This document shows positions 18,944 to 19,903 of a stretch of 31,080 bases of DNA, one piece after another (within the stretch, counting starts at the first letter, position 1; every line of letters begins with the position of its first letter). The position numbers and the translations under genes are program-made. Origin of the DNA: a virus. Location: UHGV virus genome UHGV-0128382. One strand, written 5' to 3'. The notes under the pieces are model-generated. The model was not told the DNA's origin. It saw only the letters and a list, made by a program, of their open reading frames with translations, and made no database searches.

Positions 18944-19903
18944 ATGATAAAAAAACCTGTGATTGGAATCAGCGGTTGTCTGGCCGGTTCTGCTGTTCGT
19001 TTTGATGGTGGTCACAAAAGAGCTGACTTTTTAATGGACAAATTAGTGGAATGGGTAACATTCAGACCAGTATGTCCGGAAATGGCTATAGGGCTGCCAG
19101 TTCCGCGTCCTGCTCTACGTCTTGTGCGCTCGACGCAAGGAAATATACGGATGTGTTTCAGCCACGACCAGAATGAGGATGTGACAGAGAGAATGACAGA
19201 GTTTAGTCGTTCTTATATGGACAAATTAAAGGATGTATCGGGGTTTGTGGTTTGTGCTAAATCTCCCAGCTGTGGCATGGAGCGCGTGCGTGTCTATGAT
19301 GAAAATGGTAATCGAGGTCGTAAAGATGGAGTGGGACTATTTACGAGCACTTTGATGGAAAAGTTTTCCTGGCTACCGGTTGAAGAGGATGGGCGATTAC
19401 ATGATCCAGTGCTTCGTGAGAATTTTGTTGAAAGAGTTTTTGCTTTGCATGAGCTCAATCACCTTTACAAGGAGAAATTATCAAGAAGAGAGTTATTAGC
19501 TTTTCATAGTCGTTATAAGCTTCAGTTGTTGGCGCATAGTCAGGCAGGCTATAAAGATATGGGACCATTTGTGGCTGCAATACACGAGTGGGCGGACCTT
19601 GAATCATACTTTGAGGTGTATCGTGATAAGCTGATGGCGATTCTCAGAAAACCTGCATCACGTAAAAATCACACGAATGTGATGATGCATATACAGGGGT
19701 ATTTTAGTAACTACTTAAGTACACGCCAGCGTAAAGAGTTGAGCGAGGTTATACTTAACTATCGTTCTGGCACATTACCTCTTCTTGCGCCGTTGACTCT
19801 GCTGAAGCATTATCTGGGTGAGTATCCTAATGATTACTTGCTTACACAGAATTACTTCGATCCCTATCCGGACGAACTGGCTCTAAGACTGATGGTAAAT
19901 TAA
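18944..19903 (+). CDS. DUF523/DUF1722-like two-domain protein (YbgA / TudS-related); family assignment from memory
   Basis: 319-aa ORF with strong GGGGGAGG RBS; N-terminal IGISGCLAG...CPE motif resembles DUF523; C-terminal half resembles the YbgA-like domain. Confidence 0.5.
   Translation: MIKKPVIGISGCLAGSAVRFDGGHKRADFLMDKLVEWVTFRPVCPEMAIGLPVPRPALRLVRSTQGNIRMCFSHDQNEDVTERMTEFSRSYMDKLKDVSGFVVCAKSPSCGMERVRVYDENGNRGRKDGVGLFTSTLMEKFSWLPVEEDGRLHDPVLRENFVERVFALHELNHLYKEKLSRRELLAFHSRYKLQLLAHSQAGYKDMGPFVAAIHEWADLESYFEVYRDKLMAILRKPASRKNHTNVMMHIQGYFSNYLSTRQRKELSEVILNYRSGTLPLLAPLTLLKHYLGEYPNDYLLTQNYFDPYPDELALRLMVN

Follow-up and report, generated by a model that had tools for sequence, protein, structure and literature searches.

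What would a temperate phage of Escherichia coli gain from a gene whose product erases a sulfur modification from the tRNAs of its host? The question is raised by rudS, located at positions 18944-19903 (+ strand) of the UHGV virus genome UHGV-0128382; the whole stretch of 31,080 nucleotides was analyzed and is referred to below as the window. The gene is an open reading frame (ORF) of 319 codons running from ATG to TAA. It encodes a fusion of a TudS domain (formerly DUF523) with a DUF1722 domain, and its product matches phrog_3275 over the full length. The ATG is preceded, at a distance of 2 nt, by the purine-rich, Shine-Dalgarno-like run AAGGGGGAGG (18932-18941, + strand), which was read from the sequence and is largely kept in Escherichia phage 1H12. 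A first-pass annotation of this DNA had described a 319-aa protein at exactly these positions, with a strong ribosome-binding site, a location in a prophage and halves resembling DUF523 and DUF1722; all of these points were borne out.

Both domains were recognized by Pfam over their whole profiles. PF04463 ("2-thiouracil desulfurase", TudS) matched aa 7-149 (profile positions 1-141 of 141, E=2.1e-40, 138.5 bits with a cut-off of 34.7), and PF08349 (DUF1722) matched aa 192-309 (profile positions 1-117 of 117, E=4e-40, 137.2 bits with a cut-off of 22.5). They are present in a single polypeptide, DUF1722 being C-terminal to TudS; the corresponding coordinates are 18962-19390 for the catalytic TudS domain and 19517-19870 for DUF1722, both on the + strand. 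Two NCBIfam models scored below their cut-offs: the YbgA model PRK10167 gave 189.4 bits for aa 160-315 (equivalog cut-off 237), and a TudS-related model gave 18 bits (cut-off 130).

Analysis of individual residues identified Cys12, Cys44 and Cys110 as the putative ligands of a [4Fe-4S] cluster. Conservation of such cysteines had been proposed as a check by the first-pass annotation, and all three were invariant in 25 orthologs. A CPE motif provides Glu46 and an SPSC motif provides Ser107, Ser109 and Cys110, while Arg55 is found eleven residues after Cys44. Glu46, Arg55, Ser107, Ser109 and the Ser239-Arg240 pair of the DUF1722 domain were invariant across 19, and then 25, enterobacterial orthologs.

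The role of this protein, first annotated as unknown, has to be updated in view of published data. In 2024 TudS-DUF1722 fusions were named RudS and described as [4Fe-4S] desulfidases which convert 4-thiouridine (s4U) in tRNA to uridine (Jamontas et al., Nucleic Acids Research 2024, 52:10543; PMC11417400). When six RudS orthologs were overexpressed in E. coli, the s4U content of tRNA fell 4.7- to 26-fold (PMC11417400). One of the six enzymes was RudS_vir, the H3V29_gp66 product of phage 1H12 (NC_049947, also among the DNA matches of the window), which has the conserved Cys12, Cys44 and Cys110 and significantly cut tRNA s4U when overexpressed in E. coli (PMC11417400). Cysteine mutants of RudS were inactive, and those of RudS_vir were used to show Fe-S dependence (PMC11417400). 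Conversion of tRNA s4U to U in vitro was demonstrated for RudS_KT of Pseudomonas putida (PP_0741), the DUF1722 domain of which binds the tRNA anticodon arm; mutation of its Cys17/49/114, Glu51, Arg60, Ser111/113 or Ser243/Arg244 abolished or reduced activity (PMC11417400).

The window protein and RudS_vir are identical at 297 of 319 positions (93%), with no gaps. Judged by sequence, the window ORF is an allele of the experimentally tested viral RudS, and we consider it highly probable that its product is the tRNA 4-thiouridine desulfidase RudS. The family, its chemistry and the 93%-identical phage ortholog were thus already published in 2024. The first-pass annotation linked DUF523 to thiouracil desulfurase activity; the known substrate is a modification in tRNA, s4U, and not free 2-thiouracil. 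Growth supported by RudS_vir on 4-thiouracil was only delayed, and no RudS supported growth of cells on 2-thiouracil (PMC11417400).

The residues tested in RudS_KT have equivalents in the window protein: Cys17/49/114 correspond to Cys12/44/110, Glu51 to Glu46, Arg60 to Arg55, Ser111/113 to Ser107/109 and Ser243/Arg244 to Ser239/Arg240. The correspondence was derived from constant spacing relative to the cysteines and from the TudS alignment rather than by direct alignment to the RudS_KT sequence. Within the tRNA-binding set of RudS_KT (Arg24, Tyr25, Asn26, Ser243 and Arg244), the arginine at 24 and the Ser-Arg pair are conserved as Arg19, Ser239 and Arg240. Tyr25 is replaced by Phe20, and the Y25F mutant of RudS_KT was wild-type-like (PMC11417400).

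Structural comparisons pointed to the same fold. The sole solved structure found by sequence was TudS 6z92 (phmmer, E=2e-4), in an alignment that brings Cys12 and the CPE motif into line and pairs Cys12 and Cys44 of RudS with Cys10 and Cys43 of TudS. An AlphaFold2 model of the window protein, for which the alignment contained no 1H12 row, was of moderate quality (predicted local distance difference test, pLDDT, 70.7; predicted TM-score, pTM, 0.66), and a loop at residues 13-29 fell below pLDDT 50. The top Foldseek match of the model was TudS 6z96_A (probability 1.00, TM-score normalized to the target 0.56, 27% identity over 146 aligned columns). This was the only meaningful PDB match, the next having E>1. 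The DUF1722 half of the model is all-helical and has no solved relative.

To what extent is the gene maintained in phages? Two phage rudS alleles differing at 8% of nucleotides gave a ratio of nonsynonymous to synonymous substitution (dN/dS) of 0.108 at dS=0.30. Phage rudS has a GC content of 43.6%, whereas the orthologs of Citrobacter and Enterobacter reach 54-57% and a copy in a Salmonella Derby prophage remnant 48%. These sequence comparisons indicate long residence in phages, because of the low GC content relative to the Citrobacter and Enterobacter orthologs, and purifying selection on rudS in phages, because of the low dN/dS. Counts for viral loci refer to the best 80 of 154 IMG/VR loci, all encoding RudS at least 97% identical to the window protein; the 319-aa ORF was intact in all 80 contigs.

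The following mechanism can be proposed. RudS would remove sulfur from s4U at position 8 (and 9) of host tRNAs, leaving uridine. The TudS domain would hold the [4Fe-4S] cluster on Cys12, Cys44 and Cys110, with Glu46, Ser107, Ser109 and Arg55 taking part in catalysis, and the helical DUF1722 domain would dock the tRNA. The gene itself is cargo (a 'moron') of the prophage: it occupies a variable slot between the late antiterminator gene Q and the lysis genes, points in the direction of late transcription and is flanked by two intrinsic terminators. Shiga toxin (Stx) phages carry their toxin genes in this slot. Its orientation along the late operon and the general lambdoid architecture lead one to expect that Q-modified RNA polymerase, having started at the late promoter, transcribes rudS by antitermination; expression in the lysogen from the region between rudS and the adjacent lipocalin gene blc is also possible.

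With regard to the benefit, s4U8 is the chromophore of tRNA for near ultraviolet (UV) light, and its cross-link to C13 results in uncharged tRNA, ppGpp and growth delay (PMC11417400). Protection from UVA therefore appears the most likely benefit: erasure of s4U would keep translation going in UVA or sunlight, either as a fitness trait of the lysogen or in support of late phage protein synthesis after UV induction. RudS_KT overexpression is reported to lessen the UVA growth delay in E. coli (PMC11417400). We infer both the mode of transcription and the benefit. The phage itself may deploy RudS, which would then be more than a hitch-hiking chromosomal stress gene: transcribed together with the lysis and head genes after SOS or UV induction, it would erase s4U8, dampen the route from near-UV cross-linking of tRNA through the stringent response to growth delay, and protect late synthesis in sunlit hosts; or it could give the lysogen UVA tolerance. 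This is put forward tentatively, as a possibility more doubtful than probable.

Several observations weigh against the proposed mechanism, mode of expression and benefit. The tRNA-contacting Asn26 of RudS_KT is Asp21 in the window protein; Asp21 is, however, invariant in enterobacterial orthologs, the active RudS_vir included. On tRNA, the activity of RudS_vir fell short of that of RudS_KT or RudS_ST (Salmonella LT2 STM1389/ORF319) despite good protein levels, and in a pyrF auxotroph it had the shortest lag of all RudS on free 4-thiouracil (PMC11417400). Because of this combination the substrate preference of RudS_vir may be shifted. The UVA benefit was seen only with plasmid-overexpressed RudS_KT (PMC11417400). 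Chromosomal rudS is usually linked to MerR/LitR light regulators (PMC11417400), whereas no MerR-family (LitR/MlrA-like) regulator or photolyase adjoins rudS in the window, its neighbours being Q, the lipocalin, an AraC-type gene and the holin. The AraC-type gene, which the phage cassette has in place of a light regulator, is disrupted in the window. Finally, sigma-70-like hexamers in 17600-21500 were not enriched (13, compared with 11.3 +/- 3.7 in shuffled sequences), a result that speaks neither for nor against a promoter belonging to rudS itself.

As an alternative, the phage enzyme might be mainly a TudS-like salvage desulfidase that, instead of editing intact tRNA, acts on free 4-thiouracil or 4-thio-UMP from degraded tRNA and feeds uracil nucleotides to phage replication. 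The short lag on 4-thiouracil agrees with this, as do a tRNA desulfidation below that expected from the protein level (PMC11417400) and a catalytic domain which is a TudS domain. Nevertheless, RudS_vir still significantly lowered tRNA s4U and stand-alone TudS did not, while no RudS equalled TudS in supporting growth on thiouracils (PMC11417400). Furthermore, the DUF1722 domain with Ser239 and Arg240 is fully conserved under purifying selection and would be superfluous in a small-molecule enzyme, and the pool of free 4-thio-nucleotides is tiny relative to phage needs. We regard salvage as the main function as unlikely.

It had also been suggested at first pass that the protein relates to nucleotide metabolism or to the countering of base-modifying defences, and no support was obtained for either. 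An anti-defence or counter-modification factor might, for example, alter tRNAs so that they escape a tRNA-targeting nuclease. tRNA is a frequent target of abortive-infection nucleases, and the prophage cargo slot often holds accessory functions. Searches of PADLOC-DB at E<=1e-3, however, detected no family match for RudS, Blc or the AraC-like protein, nor for three other accessory ORFs, and the neighbours of rudS encode a lipocalin lipoprotein and an AraC-type regulator rather than defence or anti-defence proteins. No defence system relying on s4U8 is known to us. The nearest relatives reside on chromosomes, as housekeeping or stress genes with light-response or MerR-linked surroundings; the chemistry is specific to the thiocarbonyl on uracil and does not concern DNA modifications, and the known substrate is host tRNA. 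An anti-defence role is accordingly given very little credence. Least credible of all is that rudS is a decaying, functionless passenger from an enterobacterial chromosome: although the adjacent AraC-like gene is disrupted in the window and E. coli BL21 retains only a 147-nt rudS stump cut by IS3, this is contradicted by a dN/dS of 0.11 between phage alleles, by the intact ORF in 80 of 80 viral contigs, by the retention of all catalytic residues, by a GC content pointing to long phage residence and by the activity of the 93%-identical RudS_vir (PMC11417400).

A tRNA s4U desulfidase carried by phages thus remains the preferred reading, and its chromosomal relatives were considered next to it. 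Outside E. coli, the nearest RudS proteins are encoded on the chromosomes of Citrobacter, Serratia, Enterobacter, Klebsiella, Salmonella and Pectobacterium; all have a length of exactly 319 aa and show 70-76% identity. In Enterobacter cloacae a MerR/MlrA-like gene is located immediately upstream of rudS; a MerR-type regulator beside rudS has been described for Salmonella and E. cloacae (PMC11417400). In Citrobacter braakii (257-5960 of the stretch examined) rudS is the last of eight tightly packed operon genes, the order being SDR, FAD amine oxidase, DUF1365, CFA-synthase-like methyltransferase, DUF2878, a 175-aa protein (weakly chalcone-isomerase-like), DUF3833 and rudS; in its make-up the operon resembles one for lipid modification. 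One RudS relative is a 500-aa DUF3833-RudS fusion. Joint acquisition of blc and rudS from a chromosomal operon for photo-oxidative stress was considered and rejected, as the 175-aa C. braakii protein shows no relationship with the lipocalin of the phage (best BLASTP E=4.3).

A 73%-identical rudS was found beside ttcA, the gene for tRNA 2-thiocytidine synthase (PF01171), in Salmonella Derby (5001-5960) and in a metagenome (3704-4663); an integrase fragment and a phage DUF1367 gene are close by. The arrangement looks like a prophage remnant at a ttcA integration site, and it is probably by chance that two tRNA-sulfur genes are neighbours there.

How widespread is the phage gene? Among the viral loci, blc adjoins rudS in 80/80 and Q is present in 79/80. 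Examination of the neighbourhood across prophages, another check proposed at the outset, revealed a conserved cassette: Q, blc, the AraC-like gene and the holin gene occur with rudS, all at fixed offsets, in 71 of the 80 loci. The cassette is also present in phage 1H12 and E. coli SCU-482. Full-length RudS in GenBank phages is confined to a single lineage of E. coli lambdoid phages (12 records), and all further matches are TudS-only or fragments; repeated acquisition by phages was looked for, and this single full-length lineage was what GenBank phages yielded.

In bacterial genomes, megablast found rudS in 1,136 of 5,426 complete E. coli genomes, with 1,064 matches covering at least 80% of the gene; the whole 3.4-kb cassette was covered to at least 80% in 985 complete E. 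coli genomes. About 20% of complete E. coli genomes apparently carry an intact rudS on lambdoid prophages. E. coli has been said to be without RudS in the RudS paper (PMC11417400), and a July 2026 review in Microbiology and Molecular Biology Reviews likewise states that it 'lacks RudS'; the absence is true of K-12 and not of the species. BL21 (NZ_CP010816, 2751-5340) has a relic of the cassette in a cryptic prophage, in which Q and blc are present and rudS is interrupted by IS3 after 147 nt. This strain, the expression host of the RudS paper, is therefore without a functional RudS and retains an intact phage blc.

Annotation of the gene lags behind. RefSeq records name it 'YbgA family protein' or 'DUF523 and DUF1722 domain-containing protein', and phrog_3275 is listed as of unknown function. 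The first name, given by the Prokaryotic Genome Annotation Pipeline, is due to the match between the YbgA model PRK10167 and the C-terminal half of the protein (aa 160-315). With correction of this annotation lag, thousands of prophage copies could become RudS. A literature search on prophage and DUF1722 yielded nothing relevant, and phage RudS is not discussed in the reviews of tRNA modification in stress and viral replication that were found. The prophage copies could distort results when strains are compared for near-UV growth delay, amounts of s4U, labelling with 4-thiouridine or the stability of tRNA. The fixed position between Q and the lysis genes offers a testable hypothesis for why a temperate phage keeps an eraser of a tRNA modification. 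Should deployment by the phage be confirmed, RudS would be the first virus-encoded tRNA-modification eraser with a defined role in the phage life cycle, and about one in five E. coli strains would own a tRNA s4U eraser that the field assumes the species to be without.

The genetic setting is that of a lambdoid prophage of E. coli. Pfam and PHROGs searches identified an S24/helix-turn-helix CI-like repressor, O- and P-like replication proteins, Q, a holin, lysozyme, large terminase, portal and major head protein. A lambda-type integrase was located by profile match at 50-1120 (- strand). The lambda cIII thermoregulator RNA (RF01804) is present in full length at 5604-5662 (- strand; 88.5 bits, E=1.5e-20) and confirms a lambda-like early-left operon; it was the sole match of the Rfam scan and is distant from rudS. 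The rudS nucleotide sequence is 100% identical to the copy in E. coli strain 144, and over the surrounding 3.4 kb the identity with Escherichia phage IdasGreatGrand is 99%.

Upstream of rudS, the antiterminator gene Q occupies 17694-18071 (+ strand; PF06530, E=2.5e-51; phrog_79). The listed ORF begins with TTG at 17679; the ATG at 17694 was preferred in agreement with the annotation of the 125-aa gp64 of 1H12. About 100 nt past Q lies an intrinsic terminator at 18170-18203 (+ strand), comprising 18170-18193 with a 9-bp stem and a subsequent T-run, just 3' of the convergent blc. An identical stem is present in 1H12, and the element was found exactly in 76/80 viral loci; it occupies the place of tR' in lambdoid phages and may act as such. 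The blc-like gene at 18227-18751 (- strand; PF08212, E=7e-44; phrog_2809) encodes a lipocalin lipoprotein and is antisense to late transcription. It is divergent from rudS, and the intergenic region between the two is 192 nt long.

Downstream, rudS is separated from the AraC-like gene by an AT-rich spacer of 494 nt (19904-20397, 31% GC), which gave no Rfam family match. The two best sigma-70-like hexamer pairs of the region are found in this spacer, at 19950-19977 and 20045-20074 (10/12 matches). A search near rudS for tRNA genes, as in the Q-S regions of Stx phages, found none. The gene for the AraC-type helix-turn-helix regulator (PF12833/PF00165) is at 20398-20979 (+ strand) and codes for 193 aa in the window; comparison with the 243-aa gp67 of 1H12 by tblastn showed that its first ~47 codons (from ~20255) are broken by an in-frame stop and a frameshift. 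At least 47 related viral loci have the gene undamaged, with 243-248 aa, and 9 have the short form, so that the window copy is a minority allele. A terminator scan placed the intrinsic terminator closing the cargo cassette at 21046-21075 (+ strand; also delimited as 21046-21067), just ahead of the holin gene; it was found exactly in 41/80 viral loci. The P21-type holin gene S (21173-21388, + strand; PF04971, E=3.5e-35) is the first lysis gene and the downstream limit of the cargo slot. Between it and the lysozyme gene is an ORF of 104 aa with a DUF1327 domain (21393-21707, + strand; E=5e-39).

Two further ORFs are of note. An intimin/invasin-type inverse autotransporter of 1183 aa is encoded at 12354-15905 (+ strand), with a PF11924 beta-domain (E=1e-100) and several Big_1/Invasin_D3 Ig-like repeats; it matches phrog_7803 and phrog_16344 (both 'unknown function'). 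Its gene, situated in the nin region with replication gene P on one side and NinB on the other, represents large adhesin-like cargo at an early-operon site. A 299-aa ORF at 8036-8935 (- strand), left of the CI-like repressor gene at roughly the position of lambda rexAB, gave no Pfam or PADLOC match and may be a candidate exclusion or accessory gene.

Comparison with known systems places the window protein as follows. E. coli YbgA (b0707) is a stand-alone DUF1722 protein of ~169 aa encoded upstream of the photolyase gene phr; it is without the catalytic TudS domain and left tRNA s4U unaffected (PMC11417400). Stand-alone TudS (PDB 6Z92/6Z96) has a homologous catalytic domain and fold and the same three-Cys [4Fe-4S] site. 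It consists, however, of ~150-165 aa without DUF1722, acts on free bases and nucleotides (thiouracil, 4-thio-UMP) and supports growth on both 2- and 4-thiouracil, whereas the window protein is a 319-aa fusion. RudS_KT and RudS_ST, the best-characterized chromosomal enzymes, share with it the two-domain architecture, the Fe-S ligands, the catalytic Glu/Ser/Ser/Arg and the Ser-Arg tRNA contact. Their genomic contexts are different: chromosomal rudS adjoins MerR/LitR-type light-responsive regulators, photolyase or the SDR/amine-oxidase/CFA-synthase-like operon, while the phage copy is without these and is located in the late-operon cargo slot. The closest system is RudS_vir (YP_009909557), also 319 aa long, with Cys12/44/110 and the same cassette of Q, blc (- strand), rudS, AraC-like gene and holin. 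The AraC-like neighbour is intact in 1H12 and disrupted in the window, and the two RudS proteins differ by 22 substitutions, none of them at residues reported as catalytic or tRNA-binding. Of the two alleles, that of the window is commoner in E. coli, being found in 596 genomes at a nucleotide identity of at least 99%.

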